Shown one piece after another: positions 12,429 to 64,000 of a stretch of DNA of 64,000 nt. This DNA comes from Chiloscyllium plagiosum (lineage: Eukaryota), in assembly GCF_004010195.1 (NCBI RefSeq), contig NC_057718.1:96147049-96211048 (forward strand). The letters are read 5' to 3'. Below the pieces are notes generated by a model. That model searched no databases and was not told the origin of the DNA. It saw only the letters and a list, made by a program, of their open reading frames with translations. The translations under genes and the position numbers were made by a program. Position 1 is the first letter of the stretch, and each line of letters starts with the position of its first letter.

Positions 12429-12902
12429 CTCAAAGATTACNNNNNNNNNNNNNNNNNNNNNNNNNNNNNNNNNNNNNNNNNNNNNNNNNNNNNNNNNNNN
12501 NNNNNNNNNNNNNNNNNNNNNNNNNNNNNNNNNNNNNNNNNNNNNNNNNNNNNNNNNNNNNNNNNNNNNNNNNNNNNNNNNNNNNNNNNNNNNNNNNNNN
12601 NNNNNNNNNNNNNNNNNNNNNNNNNNNNNNNNNNNNNNNNNNNNNNNNNNNNNNNNNNNNNNNNNNNNNNNNNNNNNNNNNNNNNNNNNNNNNNNNNNNN
12701 NNNNNNNNNNNNNNNNNNNNNNNNNNNNNNNNNNNNNNNNNNNNNNNNNNNNNNNNNNNNNNNNNNNNNNNNNNNNNNNNNNNNNNNNNNNNNNNNNNNN
12801 NNNNNNNNNNNNNNNNNNNNNNNNNNNNNNNNNNNNNNNNNNNNNNNNNNNNNNNNNNNNNNNNNNNNNNNNNNNNNNNNNNNNNNNNNNNNNNNNNNNN
12901 NN

Positions 12903-13055
12903 CTGTGGGAGGAAACCGGAGCACCCGGAGGAAACCCACGCAGACACGGGGAGAATGTGCAAACTCCACACAGTCAGTCGCCTGAGGCGGGAATTGAACC
13001 CAGGTCTCTGGCGCTGTGAGGCAGCAGTGCTACCCACTGTGCCACCGTGCCGCCC
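12903..13055 (-). mobile_element. HE1-type V-SINE 5' half (rest lies in the gap)
   Basis: Reverse complement begins GGGCGGCACGGTGGCACAGTGGGTAGCACTGCTGCCTCACAGCGCC with a B box GGTTCAATTCC and V-domain GTGTGGAGTTTGCACATTCTCCCCGTGTCTGCGTGGGTTTCC. Confidence 0.9.
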
Positions 13056-13436
13056 TGTAACCTTTCGTCAGAACAGTCCCTAATTGTATCCTCAGATAGG
13101 ATGCCACACATCACTGCATCAGCTGCCGGCTTTATTTTGTTTGGAATTATTACAGCGAGCAGGACAATGGGATTTTTACATCATTCACAGCACGTGGGTG
13201 CCACTGACTAGGCCATTGGTCATGCCTGATTAACTTTGAGAAGCCGCCCTGTAACCTTTCGTCAGAACAGTCCCTAATTGTATCCTCAGATAGGATGCCA
13301 CACATCACTGCATCAGCTGCCGGCTTTATTTTGTTTGGAATTATTACAGCGAGCAGGACAATGGGATTTTTACATCATTCACAGCACGTGGGTGCCACTG
13401 ACTAGGCCATTGGTCATGCCTGATTAACTTTGAGAA
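13049..13436. repeat. Tandem duplication, 2 x 194 bp
   Basis: 13049-13242 and 13243-13436 appear identical by eye. Confidence 0.9.
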
Positions 13437-15407
13437 GGTGGTGGTGAGCTATCAAATTTTTAAGCTGGAGGTGGCTAGATTATCATGAAACAATGGAATG
13501 GTGTAGGGTGGGATTACAGATTTCATGCTATAATCACATTAGCCATGATCCTATTGAATGGCTGGAGAGCTGGACTGGCCTAATCCTGCTCCTTGATTAT
13601 ATGTGTATGCACCTTCTTGAACCATGGCAGTCCATGGCATGGGTAGGGGTTAGAGGGTACACCCTTAGTGTCGTTGAGAAGGGACTTTCCGGATTTTGAC
13701 CCAGCAACCAGGAAGGAGTGACAACATAGTTCAACAGTAAATCAAGACACTGTGGGCTTGGAAGAGAACTTGTAGGTGATGATGCTCCCAAGGCTCTACT
13801 TGCTGCTACTGTTTTTTTTACTGTATGCTTTTAAACTTATTCCGAGTACCTCTAATAGCCATGAAATTATGAGTCTCTTAGTTACTGAGTACACATTGGG
13901 AGTTTTTAATGTAGCAATCTGAACCTAGTTTAGCTTCATGTCATTGCACTGTTGGTGTTTGCAACGGACAGGTAACTAACTGATCGGGAGTTTGGAATTC
14001 CCTTAATCCGATTGGCCAACAATGATGAGATGAGCAATCGTCATTCCATTTTGCAACCAGAAGATTAGACTCTCAACAACGTCTTAAGTGATTTTTAGTC
14101 AACACCTTCCACTTTTGCAAACTAAGTTTCGCTGAGTTGCTAAACTCACATTGTAAGCAATTACCTTAATTCTATTGAAGCGTTAACTGGATTCAGTTAT
14201 TTGCTTGATCATTATACTCTATTACCTTACATCCAGCAGACTGCCCTGTGCAATTATTTTTAGCGTAGTTTTAAAATACACTGACTTTTCTCCCCCCCAC
14301 CCCCCTTTTTTTCCCCGCTATGAGCGCTACGCTTTGCTGACAGTGTGAAACAATTCGGTCTGCAGATATCTCCAGAGATAACGTCAGTGATGTTTTGTAG
14401 TCAGCCTGCCACAGGCAGGAAAGGACTCTTCCCTGGCTGGTTATCTTACCGTTCTCAAGCCACCCACTTCTTATTGTTCAATTTCCCCCCCCTCCTCCTC
14501 TCTTTAAATCACATCCCCNNNNNNNNNNNNNNNNNNNNNNNNNNNNNNNNNNNNNNNNNNNNNNNNNNNNNNNNNNNNNNCCCCAAAGAGAAAAGCAGTT
14601 GAGACTGAAATTGAAATTTGACTTTCCCATCTGAAAATGTTATCTTGAGACATTTGAACTACTGTATAGTTCCCCAAGGCTACAAAATTTATGAAGATGA
14701 ATGTTGCAATTAAATGTCCTTTTTAACATATTATACTCCTAATGTTTCTGGTCTATTTTTGTGCATGTCAATTTTTTTTTGCAAGGAATTATAGGGCAGA
14801 GAATATTTTCACGTTGAGTCTTCTTCCAAACTTTTCTTGTGTTGCAATTCTGATGCCTCCGGCTACGATTCTAATTTACTGAGCTTGCAAAGAATGTGAT
14901 GAAGATTAAGGGTATAAATAAATACACAGAAAAAGGGAAATATGCATTAAATGGGTAGAGTCGTGCAACATGCTGATTAGGAAAGAGTCTGTAGGCGGGT
15001 TATTGCTGATCAATATGAGATTGTCAATTACAGTACTTAGTAAAGGAGATTTCGGAGAGCTCAATCCATTAATACTAATATGAGGTGGATAATGTGAGCG
15101 GTTGTGCAATGTCAATAGAAAATAGCATTGAGCTATTTGTGGTACCTTGATGATTTAAAAATAGTGGAAACAGAACTGCCCAGAGTTTCGATGGTTAAAC
15201 CTTCCTTAGCAAAGTCATTAATAAAAAAAAACGCACACACTCAGCGGCACAATCAAATTATTGCGTGAGTGTTTTGTTCTAGGTCAGACATGAAGATGGC
15301 ATTTACAAAGAGAGAGAATTTCAAGTATCAAACACAGCAATGACTGGAGTGAATTAGTCCTGAAGCCTTTCTTTGGGTGGACTTTTTAATTCAGGCGCAA
15401 ATGATGA

Positions 15408-15587
15408 CCGCAGATCAGAGTCGAGAGTGCGGTGCTGGAAAAGCACAGCAGGTCAGGCAGCATTCCGAGGAGCAGGAGAGTCGAAGTTTCGGGCATAAAC
15501 TCTTCATCAGGAATGTGGGAAGGACTTTTGCCCGAAACGTCGACTCGCCTGCTCCTGGGATGCTGTCTGACCTGCTGTGCTTTTCAA
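15408..15587. mobile_element. Penelope-like palindromic terminus pair
   Basis: Inverted arms ctggaaaagcacagcaggtcaggcagcat / atgctgtctgacctgctgtgcttttc with hammerhead remnants in the centre. Confidence 0.8.
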
Positions 15588-15964
15588 GGAAAGACGACAA
15601 TCGGGTTCTGGATTTAGGCTGATTTGATTTTTTGCGAGTCAAAACGGGTCTGCCTTGACCAGCCCACGTTGGTTGTAAGTTTTGTATTAAGGGATATGAG
15701 AGTCTATATGATCCGTGTCCCTCGCCAGTGTAGCAAGAGATGTTTCTTCCTGGCCTTCTCAGTGAGTACTTTTACCTTGAACGCCACGTCCTGCACATCA
15801 GTTGTGTTTGCTAAGGGACATCACAATGCAGAGAGGGTGACCTGGTGGAGCTGGTAAGAGCTTTAGGATTCAAGCCCAGACGCTACTGTCTCCTTGGGCT
15901 CATCTGTCAATCATCCCAGCTCCTTGTCTTCTCAGTCTACAGACTGGGTGTATCAGTATAGTGT

Positions 15965-17973: not shown

Positions 17974-18224
17974 TGAAAGAGAGACGTCACCAAGTCACCC
18001 TTTGTTTACCCATGTATAGTACATGACACTGACCCAGCCAGCTTACCTGGGTGTGTGGATACCTGGGTGGGATGGATACCTGGCTCTGAGAGTCAACAGA
18101 AACCCATGACACTCCTGTTTATATGTGTCAGCCAGGGTTCCCTTTTTGGAACAGGTTAACAGCCCAAATCAAGGAGCTTATGTTCTATGAGGTCCACTTG
18201 GCTGACCTCGATATAATCACGACC
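17974..18224 (-). mobile_element. Solo LTR-like element, copy 1
   Basis: Homologous to 19503-19723 and 61794-61913; contains GACACTCCTGTTTATAT and CAGCCAGGG. Confidence 0.65.
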
Positions 18225-19502: not shown

Positions 19503-19723
19503 TGAAATGACTCCACAGAGGCCAGTATCCCATCACCAAGTCACTCTCTATGTGCCATACGTGCATAGTGGTCCGCCTTCCTCAGAGCCAGCTCTCAGAA
19601 TGAACTGGCACTCCTGTTTATATCTGTTAGCCAGGGCTCCCTGATTGAACTAAGTTCACAGACCCAGTCAAGGAACTCATAGTCTGTAAGGCCTAACTGG
19701 CTGACCTCTTTACAGTCACTGTA
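19503..19723 (-). mobile_element. Solo LTR-like element, copy 2, inside a decayed CR1 3' end
   Basis: About 220 bp. The minus strand has a TATA-like GATATAAA and ends ...TTTCA; it is flanked by GGTTC/GATTC (5-bp TSD with 1 mismatch). Confidence 0.7.
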
Positions 19724-26245: not shown

Positions 26246-26874
26246 CAGGCAGCAGTGGCCTATGGCCAAGCAACACCTTGATTTTAACATTCTCATTCCT
26301 GTGTACTAATCATTCCTTGGCGTTCTATCCCTGTAATCTCCTTCAGCCCTTGCAACACTCTGATACATCAGGATTCCCCGAACTCAGACTTCTTGCGCAC
26401 CTCCAGTCCAGTTGCTCCACCAACAGCAATTTCCCCTTCAGTTGTTGATGACCAATGTGCTGCAATTCCCTTATCCTCTCTGCCTCTATATCATTCCTTC
26501 TTATTCTCAATCTCTCTCCCAAATCTACTTTTCCAATTGGCTTTTTGATCCTCTAACATCTTCTTAAATAATTGGTGTCAAAATCTATTTGATAATGCTC
26601 CTGTGAAATGCATTGAATACCTTTTATTACGTTAAAGGGATATATAAATGCACATTAGTGTTGTTCTTATTATTTATATGTGAAAGTAGATGGTGAATAG
26701 TGGGACACTGTTTACCAAACTTCATGCCAGACTAATCCTATTCCCAACTGACTGTGAGTCACAGACTTGTTGGCGCTGGGCGCTAGAGGGTGATCAGAAA
26801 TAGAAGACAATAATCTTCAATCTTCAATAATCCAGGCAATTTGGGAGGCTAATATGAGAGATTCCTCCTACCAG

Positions 26875-27061
26875 AGCCGAGAGTGTGGTGCTGGAAAAGC
26901 ACAGCTGGTCAGGCCGCATCCAAAGAGCAGGAATTCCTGATGAAGGGCTTATGCCCGAAATGTCGATTCGCCTGCTCCTCGGATGCTGCCTGACCGGCTG
27001 TGCTTTTCCAGCACCACACTCTCAACTCTGATCTCCAGCATCTGCGCCCTCGCTTTCTCCT
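26875..27061. mobile_element. Penelope-like palindromic insertion with hammerhead
   Basis: Inverted arms; CTGATGA-a-GGGCttatGCCC-GAAA-tGTC at 26937-26964; TSD AGATTCCTCC(T/C)ACCAG at 26859-26874 and 27062-27077. Confidence 0.85.
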
Positions 27062-42108: not shown

Positions 42109-42317
42109 AGGAGAAAGTGAGGACTGCAGATGCTGGAGACCAGAGTTGAAAAGTGTGGTGCTGGAAAAGCGCAGCCGGCCAGGCAGCATCCGAGGAGCAG
42201 GAGAATCGATGTTTCGGGCATAAGCCCTTCTTCAGGAAGGAGGGCTTATGTCCGAAACGTCGATTCTCCTGCTCCTCGGATGCTGCCTGGCCCACTGCGC
42301 TTTTCCAGCACCACATT
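42109..42317. mobile_element. Penelope-like palindromic insertion
   Basis: Near-perfect inverted arms centred on ~42235; TSD-like TTGAAGAAT(C/T)CT on both sides. Confidence 0.85.
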
Positions 42318-42699
42318 TGAAGAATTCTGACACTTAACACTTTTGCTTTCTTTTTCTTTTTTGACCAGAAACTGATATCAATCTTATAACTAACAAGCTA
42401 TTTTTAATGCAAAGGTAAAAAAAAAAAACACGCTGGAGCCCTAAACATAAAATAAAGACCTTATTTTTACTTTAAAGACAAGGTGTACTCATCAATCCTA
42501 CTGACCAATCAGCTGATTTGTTTAAGTAAAAGCAGCTCCAATTTGTTTTTCCTTGCTTCCCTCCTTAAGATGCTCAACACTAATATTCTATTGTAATTTG
42601 TATTCATGTATTAAATCACACTAAGTTGTCCACTTCTACCTGCTCAGAATATAAAGGTTCTAAATGTGTTAGTTAATAAAGAACCAGTTTCAACAAGGG

Positions 42700-45094: not shown

Positions 45095-45885
45095 TGAGCA
45101 AAATGCAGTTACTCCAATCTTTGTGTTGTTCGCAAACTTAATAATTTGGCTACCTACATTCACTTTCAATCATTTATATACAAACAACTGATCCCTGCAG
45201 AATATCACTGCTCACAGACCTTCAGACAGAAAAACACTCTCCCACTATTACTCTCTGTCTTCTATGACTAAGCCACTTCTGTATCTGTCTTACCAGCTCA
45301 ATGTGGATCCCATGTCATTTCACCTTTAGTATCAGCCTGCCATGTGGAGCCTTGTCAAAGGCCTTGCTAAAGCCTATGTACACAATTTCTATCACCTTGC
45401 CCTCAATTTTGTCACTTTGTCAAAAAACTCAAACACGTTTGTGAAACATGATCTACCCCGCGCAACTTCATGTTGCCTATTGCTAATAAATTCATACTGT
45501 GAGTGAATCTTAACTCCTAGAATCTTCTCCAATAATTTCCCTACCACCGACGTAAGGCTCACTGCCCTGTAATTTCCTGGATTATCCCTGTTGCCCTTCT
45601 TAAACAAAGGGACAACGTTGGCTATCCTCCAGTCCTCTGAGACCTCTCCTGTGACGAAAGCAGGTATTTTGCAGTGATTCGCTCAGCATTCTGGGATAGA
45701 TCCCATTAGACTCCAGGGACTGGTCTCCCTAAATGGTTTTCAAAACACCCAACACCACCTTCATTTTGATATAGTCTTGTCCTGGAATATCAACATATCC
45801 CTCTCTGGACTCACCATCCATGTCCTTCTCCTTTGTCAATACCGATGCAAAGTATTTGTTTAAGGACCTCATCCACTTTCTCCAG
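45095..45885 (-). mobile_element. CR1 reverse transcriptase fragment
   Basis: Peptide FKKGNRDNPGNYRAVSLTSVVGKLLEKIL...GRSCFTN. Confidence 0.88.
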
Positions 45886-61793: not shown

Positions 61794-61913
61794 TGAAATA
61801 ACTCCGCAGAAGCCAGGTTCCTGCCACCCTTTATTATACACTGACAACCCTTGGCACTGACCCAGCTCCCTCCGAGCCAGCTCTCAGAGCGAATGGGAGG
61901 TCTGACACTCCTG
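61794..61913 (-). mobile_element. Solo LTR-like element, copy 3, truncated at the TATA-proximal site by non-LTR insertions
   Basis: TGAAATAACTCC terminus, minus-strand AATAAA, and GAGCCAGCTCTCAGAG...TCTGACACTCCTG homologous to 19503-19616; homology stops where the intact copies read TTTATAT. Confidence 0.7.
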
Positions 61914-62508
61914 CTCCTTTCATTTATTAACCAGTACAAATTACGCACAGTTAACAATGAACAGCAGTTTACAAGAAACAGCAATTTACAGGGAAAGGGG
62001 GAGTAAAGCCAGACCCCCAGGCCCCTCTGTACAAGCAGGTCACAGGGAAGAAGGATGAACCTCAAATCCCAGCTTTATTATATCAAAAAGGGAAACAGTA
62101 AATGCAATCACATACAGACAGTCCAATAAACCAAACAATAAAACAGTGCGTATATCTTAGGCACCCAGCAAACTACCGTCGCTCCCACCTTTCAGCCACT
62201 CACAGGCAGCCCGCCCCCATGCTCCTTCTGGTTCTTGGTCTGTCCTGACACACCTACCTTCTGGTCACCTCTATGACAGCCCGTCCTGTTTCCCCAACCC
62301 CCTCTCAGAATGACAGTGATCAGGACGGCCTACCCACCTACTGGCTTCCTTAACCGCTCTTCGCAGTTTCTGGCCACCTCTTGGACAGCCCGCCCCGGTA
62401 CCTGCCTGAGGTGACAGCGCTGAGCACGGCCTACACACCTTCCGGCTCTCTGTCTGCCCCTATATACCATCTGGATCTCACCCACCCCAACACACCATCC
62501 CACTCCTG

Positions 62509-62756
62509 CTCTTGTTTGTAATTTTAAAAAAAATTTCCCCCACACTACCACCGAACAGCCGTAGTACTTATTTTTCCCCAGCACCCATGTCACATGTGCG
62601 CAGGTGTGTAAATCTTTATTTGTATTCCAACACTATAAACAATGTCATTCAGTAGCCTGTGGGACAGTTCCTCAGTTTCAATTCCAGTTCCAACATGTTT
62701 CGAACAGGGAATTTCTGTGTGGGAGGTCAACGTGATAACCACTTCACTGCAGAAGC
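62509..62756 (-). mobile_element. Candidate SINE: tRNA-Val-derived head plus Tx1-like 3' tail
   Basis: Head 62756-62686 GCTTCTGCAGTGAAGTGGTTATCACGTTGACCTCCCACACAGAAATTCCCTGTTCGAAAC aligns with vertebrate tRNA-Val. Tail 62536-62635 aligns with the Tx1 3'UTR copies at 62915 and 63468. Confidence 0.65.
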
Positions 62757-62898
62757 TCTCACCCCTGTTCTTTTCTTCCCCTTTTTTTAACAGTGATTAG
62801 AACCTCTATACTCGTGTTTGTTTACTTTTTTTCTTTTCAGGATGTCTGACACTCCTGTTCTTTTTTTAATAGAGTGAACAAGACGTCAGCGATTCCTG

Positions 62899-63818
62899 TA
62901 TTTATTTATTTATTTCCCCACACTACCACCTAAGTGCGGTTGTGTTTAATTTTCCCCAGCACCCGTGTCGTGTGTGTGTGCAGGTGGAGGACACTGTGAA
63001 AACTAACGGGTGTACAAATCTTTATTAATATTGTACCACCAGGAAGAAAGGAGAGAGCAGAGTAGCCAGTGACAAGTGGTGCCTTTCACATCAAAGGGCA
63101 ATGCTGTTTGATAAACCCATTTTTCTTTCTTTTAGACACAAGGTGCATGAATCTTTATTCAGTTTCCACCACCAGGAAGCAAGGAAAACACCCGAGTGGC
63201 CAGTGACAAGCCGTGCCCTTCACATCAAAGGGCAATGCTGTGTGATCAAACAGTGAAGGGGAGGGAAGGGATTAAATCAAAATAGAGTTGGAGGGGGAAA
63301 TAATGCACTCCACTCCCTGCGGCGCCCACCTCTCCCTGAACAACTCCAGGGAGTTGGTGGACACCGCGTGCTCCTTCTCCAGAGATACCCCGGATGTGTG
63401 GCCTCTATTTTTTTTTTATCTTTATTCAAATTCCACCACCAGGAACATTCACCTTTTTTTTCTTTTAACCCCCACACTACCGGTAGTGCTTATTTTTTCC
63501 CCCGCACCCATGGTGTGTGTGTATATGTGTGAGACACAGTGAAGGACACAAAGTGCACGAATCTTTATTCAAATTCCACCACCAGGAAGATAGGAAAACA
63601 CCCGGGTGGCCAGTGACAAACACTGCCCTTCACATCAAAGGGCAGTGCTGTGTGATCAAAACAGTGAAGGGGAGGGTAGGGACTAAATCAAAACAGAGTT
63701 GGAGGGAGAAATGATGCGCTCCACTCCCTGCAGCGCCCACCTCTCCCTGAACAACTCCAGGGTGTTGGTGGACACTGCGTGCTCCTTCTCCAGAGACACC
63801 CGGGATGTGTGGCCTCTA
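62899..63818 (-). mobile_element. Tandem 5'-truncated Tx1-clade (L1 group) retrotransposon 3' ends
   Basis: Two copies of the ORF end VSLEKEHAVSTN(S/T)LELFRERWA(P/L)QGVE(C/R)IISPSNS(I/V)LI* (stops at 63272-63274 and 63683-63685), a 3'UTR with AATAAA and A-rich tails; at least four units. The Tx1 assignment rests on recalling the F..RW C-terminal motif. Confidence 0.7.
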
Positions 63819-64000
63819 TTGATATGTAAGCAATCAGGGCAACCAATTGATAAATAGAAGGACAGCCAATGAGCAATGATTAGTGCCCTAGGTGGGATTG
63901 GTTGAGGAATACCGATTGGTAGGACACTGGGAAAACTTCCTTCTTTGCATTGATCGATATGATCAGTTATTTCCACATGACAGCACAGATTGGGCCTTCG

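Follow-up and report, generated by a model that had tools for sequence, protein, structure and literature searches.

Why do truncated retroposon ends accumulate, all on one strand, at a single break in a long terminal repeat (LTR)? The question is raised by positions 61794-63830 of a 64-kb stretch of the Chiloscyllium plagiosum genome (RefSeq assembly GCF_004010195.1, contig NC_057718.1, positions 96,147,049 to 96,211,048), hereafter called the window. On direct reading, ~1.9 kb of minus-strand, A-tailed retroposon pieces are interspersed there with copies of LTR sequence. The initial annotation of this DNA proposed that a Tx1-type long interspersed element (LINE) targets the LTR at its TATA motif and regenerates the target as a target-site duplication (TSD), so that successive insertions pile up at one site. 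Genome-wide tests uphold such a shared target point with successive accumulation. In our judgement it is highly probable that a Tx1-clade LINE inserts with strong preference into an LTR family of ~240 bp, in the LTR's own orientation, and builds stacks there by repeated insertion; positions 61794-63830 are one such old stack.

The stack in the window

In plus-strand sense, the third LTR copy of the window breaks off right after ...CACTCCTG, at 61913, and the unbroken sites of the two intact copies continue from ...CACTCCTG into TTTATAT (18110-18124 and 19610-19624). Natural LTR halves from other loci were used for BLAST, the downstream half coming from L062 (loci numbered in this way are genome stretches fetched with their flanks). 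Copies 1 and 2 show both halves and copy 3 the downstream half only, at 61825-61913 (76% identity to L062, E 1e-10). By fuzzy-motif match and reading, copy 3 also has the AATAAA and the ...TTTCA end that are common to 12 other copies. The positions annotated for the LTR copies, for the break and for the motif copies all proved correct on reading, and the T-rich tract said to trail the motif is present behind each listed copy on the plus strand.

Read along the minus strand, the stack consists of unit A, a mini-unit, units B and C, LTR-start fragments of 29, 20 and 27 nt, unit D, E2 and the downstream half of the LTR (Table 1). The annotation of these pieces as Tx1 units holds for units A to C, which are Tx1 3' ends; it does not hold for E2, which belongs to a second retroposon family, nor for D, which resembles a short interspersed element (SINE) with a tRNA-Val-like head. 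In its exact form, the 14-mer CAGGAGTGTCAGAC is present at two places of the window (61900-61913 and 62844-62857), each time on the minus strand. When up to 3 mismatches are allowed, 11 matches are found against 6.6 expected, a number reached by 8 of 100 shuffles. The weaker motif copies of the window are therefore within what chance alone would give, and they become meaningful only through the genome-wide pattern.

The LINE and its target repeat

The Tx1 units are 3' ends with the last codons of open reading frame 2 (ORF2) and, after them, a 3' untranslated region (UTR) that carries AATAAA; their end is fixed and their tail A-rich. Unit A contains the last 34 ORF2 codons, the 3' UTR with its AATAAA and the terminal ...GGTAGTGTGGGGG, and all 39 other scored places of the genome cease to match it at 63804. 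The hallmarks of a target-primed retroposon are present: A-rich tails, TSDs at LTR and non-LTR sites, and varied 5' truncation, the 5' ends spanning positions 1 to 1018 on reading of the loci (here and below, reference positions are coordinates on the natural Tx1 copy used as BLAST reference).

The protein comparison made use of two comparators, Xenopus Tx1 ORF2 (YTX2_XENLA) and a Polypterus L1-type ORF2. A long copy in L018 (3811-5322, minus strand) is 49% identical over 506 amino acids to residues 632-1133 of the Xenopus protein (427 bits), as against 26% (71 bits) for the L1-type protein. It is degenerate, with 3 stops, and its match to RVT_1 (E 3e-13) lies above the curated Pfam cut-off. 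The last 138 amino acids of the LINE ORF2 are 48% identical to Tx1 ORF2 residues 1155-1291 (E 3e-26), and no likeness to the L1-type protein was found over this part. The zf-RVT match to the C-terminus (26.9 bits) falls slightly below the cut-off of 27.5, and the translation shows on reading a C-x2-C-x7-H-x5-C pattern, which aligns with the C-terminus of Tx1. Xenopus Tx1 ORF2 is thus the closest named protein, with 48-49% identity over the C-terminal half of the reverse transcriptase and over the C-terminus. These similarities to two named comparators support the assignment of the LINE as Tx1-like that had been made from the window. A full-length element was sought by walking upstream of long copies; five stretches of 10 kb each led to truncations or N runs, and the 6.5 kb ahead of L018 contain a Tx1 copy truncated at about ORF2 residue 558 (L018/L085).

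Two further observations concern the LINE itself. Tx1 3' ends recur at reference positions ~924, ~964-969 and ~1020, together with A-tracts (L044, L045, L004, L005 and unit B of the window). In addition, a reverse-transcriptase segment inside a predicted stingray protein gives an 81% match over 105 amino acids.

By its layout, the target is a short LTR-like repeat of ~240 bp. Its termini are TG...CA, and CCAAT, TATAAA and AATAAA follow each other in that order, the motifs being identified by reading. An alignment of 19 upstream halves reveals a common 5' boundary (TGTAG...), a CCAAT motif ~30 nt upstream of TATAAA, and TATAAA itself ~105 nt in; the DNA upstream of the boundary is unrelated between loci. 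Downstream halves have CAGGAG... in common, carry AATAAA ~75 nt further on and share the ...TTTCA end in 12 copies. The flanks past this end vary between copies, which fits solo LTRs, short of proof. Two subfamilies, which differ after CAGGAG, are both used as target at the same point.

Site preference across the genome

The 3.56-Gb assembly was searched genome-wide and two samples were taken, each of them the 40 best-scoring of >2400 candidates and no census. The Tx1 sample consists of 39 places besides the window's own, selected solely by likeness to the window's unit, and the LTR sample of 39 copies selected by their upstream half alone, occupancy being ignored, in which 110 nt past TATAAA were read. 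By a fixed rule that counts an LTR half beside a Tx1 unit, the two adjoin on the same strand in 20 of the 39 Tx1 loci and on opposite strands in 0; reading adds L020 and L037 (22/39), and L044 has the motif only. In the remainder, the site is either ambiguous or clearly a different one. The flanks of Tx1 copies elsewhere are thus non-random and point to the same place in the LTR, in the same orientation, as had been predicted. The share exceeds the threshold by which a family is termed target-specific, namely that >20% of its flanks represent one sequence type (PMC4494074). All 17 LTR upstream halves found in Tx1 loci are broken at most ~15 nt past TATAAA, where they lead into Tx1 (15), E2 (1) or an A-rich stretch followed by Tx1 (1). 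In addition, ACAGGAG lies within 70 nt past the unit end in 38 of 128 units, compared with 0.7% of background windows. DNA contigs from a public run agree with this: among the 15 joints listed, 11 pass from L026 2093-2101, directly past TATAAA, into varied Tx1 positions.

The LTR sample approaches the same point from the side of the target. The downstream half follows in 25 copies by BLAST and in 3 more by eye, 6 copies run into Tx1 and 3 into E2. All 9 of these inserts start 8-11 nt past TATAAA, so that LTR copies elsewhere are indeed interrupted at the position first noticed in the window, and no copy meets Tx1 directly at any other point within the 110 nt read. E2 copies, 5'-truncated, occupy the same point in L046, L049 and L067. 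What remains of the sample is L080, which is cut by an unrelated repeat, and a special case, L077. In the latter (131 nt), 53 nt of LTR past TATAAA are followed by poly(A), a short leader and a Tx1 3' end, an arrangement that may reflect a duplication of unusual length or the retro-copying of part of an LTR transcript.

Since the motif is found behind most tails, it could be thought to belong to the retroposon, be it as the genuine 3' end or through 3' transduction from a source locus, and some leaders of the window do on reading resemble typical LTR copies more closely than the local one. This explanation is very improbable and largely refuted. The 5' junctions adjoin LTR upstream halves whose own flanks are unrelated; 25 to 28 of the 39 LTR copies have the motif without Tx1; and insertions outside the LTR (L007, L009, L016, L034, L036 and L039) bear other duplications, with no CAGGAG. 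The motif is therefore target and not part of the Tx1 3' end, in line with the original proposal.

The off-target insertions bear on another possibility, that of an endonuclease with merely an L1-like taste for A-rich sites, the LTR being favoured through an open or factor-bound promoter, through tethering or through pairing with read-through RNA. On reading, every off-target TSD starts in an A-run (ATAAA or TTAAAA, for example), and the target point is itself a TATAAA with CCAAT upstream. Such a taste would hardly direct about half of the insertions sampled, all in a single orientation, to the same position in one repeat family, nor would it lead to the same point in two LTR subfamilies that differ downstream of CAGGAG. 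We regard it as an unlikely account and favour a preference for the LTR sequence.

Growth of the stacks

Most Tx1 loci hold several units, and stacks are present also at the non-LTR sites L007, L034 and L037. The age of a unit was gauged as its identity to one single natural copy. By this measure, 11 of 15 arrays show a decrease in unit identity in the 5' to 3' direction, a trend that 4 of 2000 permutations attain, and in 10 of the 15 no unit is more diverged than the 3'-most one, where 3.5 would be expected. The median divergence between units is 0.0495 within loci and 0.0495 between loci. Moreover, stacks mix Tx1 units of differing truncation with tail-only units, E2 and SINE-like units. Taken together, the mixture of units, the age gradient and the equal divergence indicate insertions spread over time and mostly TATA-proximal, and support the conclusion that stacks grow at their TATA-proximal end by repeated insertion.

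The window stack fits this pattern, with identities to the reference of 93% for A, 92% for B, 80% for C and 82% for D (the last referring to the tail, reference 982-1055), and the 3'-most unit, E2, is of an older family, whose members are 72-85% identical. E2 is the oldest insert of the stack. Over 276 bases, a self-comparison finds 91.7% identity between units A (63468-63804) and B (63134-63393); partial copies of greater age lie close by.

Several points weigh against this reading, in addition to the make-up of both samples and the single yardstick for age given above, and to the ambiguous origin of the RNA reads described below. By the adjacency rule, 19 of the 39 Tx1 loci fail, and several are on reading plainly outside any LTR, with ordinary TSDs of 13-16 nt that start in an A-run; the preference is therefore not absolute. 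Neither an endonuclease domain nor a full-length element was seen among the copies collected, the long ones running into N stretches that may be assembly gaps. Beyond the window stack (63821-63990), BLAST to the natural halves detected no LTR upstream half. As to growth itself, units of one stack share leader and 5' truncation, which is not what independent 5' truncation predicts; the nearest relative lies in the same locus for 10 of 55 units, as against 1.6 in shuffles; and L004 holds two units (2 and 3) with identical tails, at a period of 410 nt. The latter two findings imply that some local duplication occurred.

These last three features are what one would expect if stacks were mainly DNA-level tandem duplications of one insert with its TSD, produced by unequal crossing-over or slippage between the repeats that A-tracts and TSDs provide, with only a small part left for repeated insertion. 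However, the units that share a leader and a 5' truncation differ in their 3' ends and tails (A and B of the window, L004, L026 and L044). Units A and B, identical on reading in leader and in 5' truncation, end at reference 1056 and 969, respectively, and those of L004 at 839, 1021 and 1056. Nor would duplication produce stacks of mixed Tx1 truncations with tail-only units, E2 and a SINE-like unit, or a divergence within a locus that equals the one between loci, and an ordered age gradient is unexpected from unequal exchange. Tandem duplication as the main process is thus improbable, and repeated insertion is the reading that we retain. Microhomology was also considered as the sole cause of identical 5' junctions and rejected; on reading it amounts to 0-4 nt, too little to fix one truncation point.

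N runs of 300-6700 nt lie inside or beside the Tx1 stacks of L002, L018, L029, L032, L037, L039 and L044, and such stacks seem to be places where the assembly breaks.

Possible mechanism and possible role of the LTR promoter

Repeated use of one site could be explained as follows. The endonuclease would recognise the sequence and place a first nick in or directly before TATAAA and a second one ~13-19 nt downstream, at times up to ~29 nt. Each insert would thus be bordered by a duplication that includes (AT)AAA plus CAGGAG..., and an intact site would persist upstream of every insert, ready to be reused. Later arrivals, mostly TATA-proximal, would comprise 5'-truncated Tx1 copies, abortive tail-only copies, E2 and the SINE-like rider. 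The duplicated stretch (13-19 nt by reading, 27-29 nt in tail-only units) may reach past the leader into the resident unit, whose end would then pair with the new cDNA at the homologous place, prime the second strand and reproduce the 5' junction. The leader and 5' truncation common to the units of one stack would then follow from the reach of this stretch into the resident unit and from the role of the latter as primer. TSDs of the Xenopus element Tx1L are ~23 bp long.

With considerable doubt, we also raise the idea that the Tx1 family lives off the LTR promoter, the LTR being a self-renewing landing pad from which E2 and tRNA-Val-headed riders would be launched as well. Sense insertion between the TATA motif and the transcription start of the LTR would provide the insert with an upstream CCAAT/TATA promoter. 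The long duplication would let the resident end prime the next insert, and the stack would copy its 5' junction while growing promoter-ward. Expression was assessed in a single poly(A) RNA run labelled with the same species, reads being accepted at >=92% identity on two Tx1 units. The units carry 1567 reads, for which, at 92% identity, any copy or a read-through transcript may be the source; poly(A) RNA therefore includes some members of the family. First mates fall nearly all on one strand (depth up to 421 versus 16), and no preferred transcript start on the Tx1 units was seen in this run. Poly(A)-bearing read ends were counted ~20 nt past AATAAA (27) and at an internal A-rich site (52), and poly(A)-bearing reads were seen at reference positions ~964 and ~1020.

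Comparison with known target-specific elements

Many elements of the Tx1 clade are target-specific (Kojima 2015, PMC4494074). Two crocodilian families, Tx1-8_Crp and Tx1-4_AMi, favour LTR retrotransposons and are in this respect like the present LINE, for which 20/39 loci exceed the same >20% mark. The present case differs in its host lineage; its insertions lie at TATAAA, in sense orientation and in large stacks. Tandem copies of SINEU-3 "sandwiching a TSD" have been explained by sequential insertion into one target, and SINEs mobilised by Tx1 are described as acquiring small-RNA heads (PMC4494074). The pair SINEU-3/Tx1-Mar in Mariner-N4_AMi thus resembles our stacks in its tandem, TSD-sandwiching insertions, in riders that use the target of the LINE and in small-RNA heads; however, its target is a DNA transposon and its heads derive from the small nuclear RNAs U1 and U2, whereas an LTR and a tRNA-Val-like head are found here. 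In Xenopus, Tx1 resides in a piggyBac-type transposon, and Tx1L in Tx1D is likewise a LINE that occupies a single site in a different transposon (Christensen et al. 2000, cited in PMC4494074), its target being a non-autonomous DNA transposon of piggyBac type instead of an LTR. R1, R2 and other LINEs specific for ribosomal DNA or small nuclear RNA genes also insert site-specifically into a multicopy target. They belong to other clades, R2 has another type of endonuclease, and they target host RNA genes, which provide transcription. It has been proposed that sequence from the target, present in the template or at the junction, aids precise 5' joining (cited in PMC4494074).

LTR-targeting Tx1 families and TSD-sandwiching tandem insertions are thus already published, and the present case accords with every theme named above from PMC4494074. 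As far as the available part of that paper goes, three features appear to go beyond it: the position at TATAAA in sense, stacks of this size that grow in one direction, and heads resembling tRNA-Val. Keyword searches of a limited literature collection turned up neither a Tx1 family directed at the TATA motif of an LTR nor any account of Tx1 targets in cartilaginous fishes.

The system illustrates in nature how a LINE can use one narrow landing site within another retroelement repeatedly. Of the insertions sampled, about half share one position; of the LTR copies sampled, about a quarter are occupied; and the age order inside stacks is a record of the direction of growth. It bears on target choice by endonuclease-type LINEs and on the way in which SINE-like riders gain small-RNA heads, and may provide leads for site-directed insertion tools. 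For annotation, it accounts for a common, gap-prone repeat structure in the assembly.

Layout of the window stack and of the LTR copies

Leaders like CAGGAGTGGG are on reading found at 5' junctions genome-wide, and units composed of a TSD plus an A-tract, comparable to the tail-only units of the window, are present in L028, L011, L006 and L027. The far flank of the stack was considered as a candidate for the LTR upstream half and rejected, as it has no BLAST match, is unique in the genome and aligns locally without significance (score 38; shuffles average 27.6, sd 3.7, and 21 of 292 pieces taken at random from the window score as high).

Table 1. Features of the window stack and LTR copies in the window (window coordinates; descriptions in element sense)
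Feature	Position	Strand	Description
Intact LTR copy 1	17978..18223	-	upstream half 18118-18223 (76%), downstream half 17987-18038 (BLAST)
Intact LTR copy 2	19507..19720	-	upstream half 19617-19720 (79%), downstream half 19525-19605 (BLAST)
LTR copy 3, downstream (R-U5-like) half	61794..61913	-	starts CAGGAGTGTCAGAC, ends ...TTATTTCA
Junction E2 to LTR copy 3	61914-61922		short
E2, second retroposon family	61923..62500	-	578 nt, internal ~100-nt repeats, AATAAA-type end
E2 leader CAGGAGTGGG	62501..62510	-	copy of LTR sequence directly past TATAAA, by reading
Unit D tail	62511-62536	-	A/T-rich
Unit D, SINE-like	62537..62757	-	tRNA-Val-like head ~62695-62757, unique body, Tx1-type 3' tail 62537-62608
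Unit D leader CAGGGGTGAGA	62757-62767	-	
Three tail-only units	62768..62915	-	LTR-start fragments, each with an A-rich tract 3'
LTR-start fragments	62790-62816, 62838-62857, 62871-62898	-	27 nt, 20 nt and 29 nt
Unit C tail	62899-62915	-	
Unit C, older Tx1 3' end	62916..63115	-	reference 854-1054; 80% to natural Tx1 copy, E 3e-44
Unit B tail	63120-63133	-	
Unit B, Tx1 3' end	63134..63393	-	reference 709-969; 92% identity; stops ~20 nt past its own AATAAA
Unit B leader TAGAGGCCACACATC	63394-63409	-	
Mini-unit poly(A)	63410-63417	-	
Mini-unit	63418..63448	-	31 nt around the Tx1 AATAAA, 97% to reference 922-952
Unit A, youngest Tx1 3' end	63468..63804	-	reference 709-1056; 93% identity
Unit A leader TAGAGGCCACACATC	63805-63820	-	
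Far flank of stack	63821..63990	-	unique in genome (self match only); several CCAAT motifs
Motif copies	62501-62508, 62757-62767, 62790-62816, 62838-62857, 62871-62898, 63391-63407, 63801-63818		T-rich run after each on the plus strand

Companion elements and minor observations

E2 shares the LTR point with Tx1, yet it bears no likeness to the Tx1 tail. A genome search with E2 gave at least 1814 candidates, the best 39 of which, besides the window's own, have the range of identity given above for the family. Many matches cover query positions 21-598, which correspond to window 62500-61923. E2 is found also in L008, L013, L017, L043, L044, L046, L049 and L067, with varied 5' truncation.

The layout of unit D is SINE-like and suggests a tRNA-derived SINE riding on Tx1. 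Its head aligns with two tRNA-Val genes called by ARAGORN (L088 and L089); in unit D itself and in the head of the L085 copy, neither ARAGORN nor Rfam detected a tRNA, and ARAGORN called no tRNA gene in L086, L087 or L090. The head is matched by 1 of the 39 best-scoring places besides the window's own, and the idea of unit D as a high-copy SINE was rejected on this count. A further tRNA-Val junction is seen in L085 (221-292, minus strand, joined to L018), where the first ~65 nt of a tRNA-Val are fused to ORF2 at about residue 558 in a 2.7-kb Tx1 copy. This head is 94% and 91% identical to the two genes called tRNA-Val by ARAGORN (AAC and CAC) and may come from a template switch onto a tRNA or from insertion into a tRNA-derived repeat.

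Elsewhere in the window, 45419-45661 (minus strand) is 35% identical to Xenopus Tx1 ORF2 residues 495-576 (E 1e-4) and is probably a remnant of another LINE. Repeats of ~130-160 nt, several of them self-complementary, lie at 15435-15588, 26872-27030, 42151-42318 and ~15 more places, and look like a family of miniature inverted-repeat transposable elements. Finally, 13049-13243 and 13243-13437 form a head-to-tail repeat of 195 nt with 100% identity, 147 nt past an N run that ends at 12902, which is possibly an assembly artefact.

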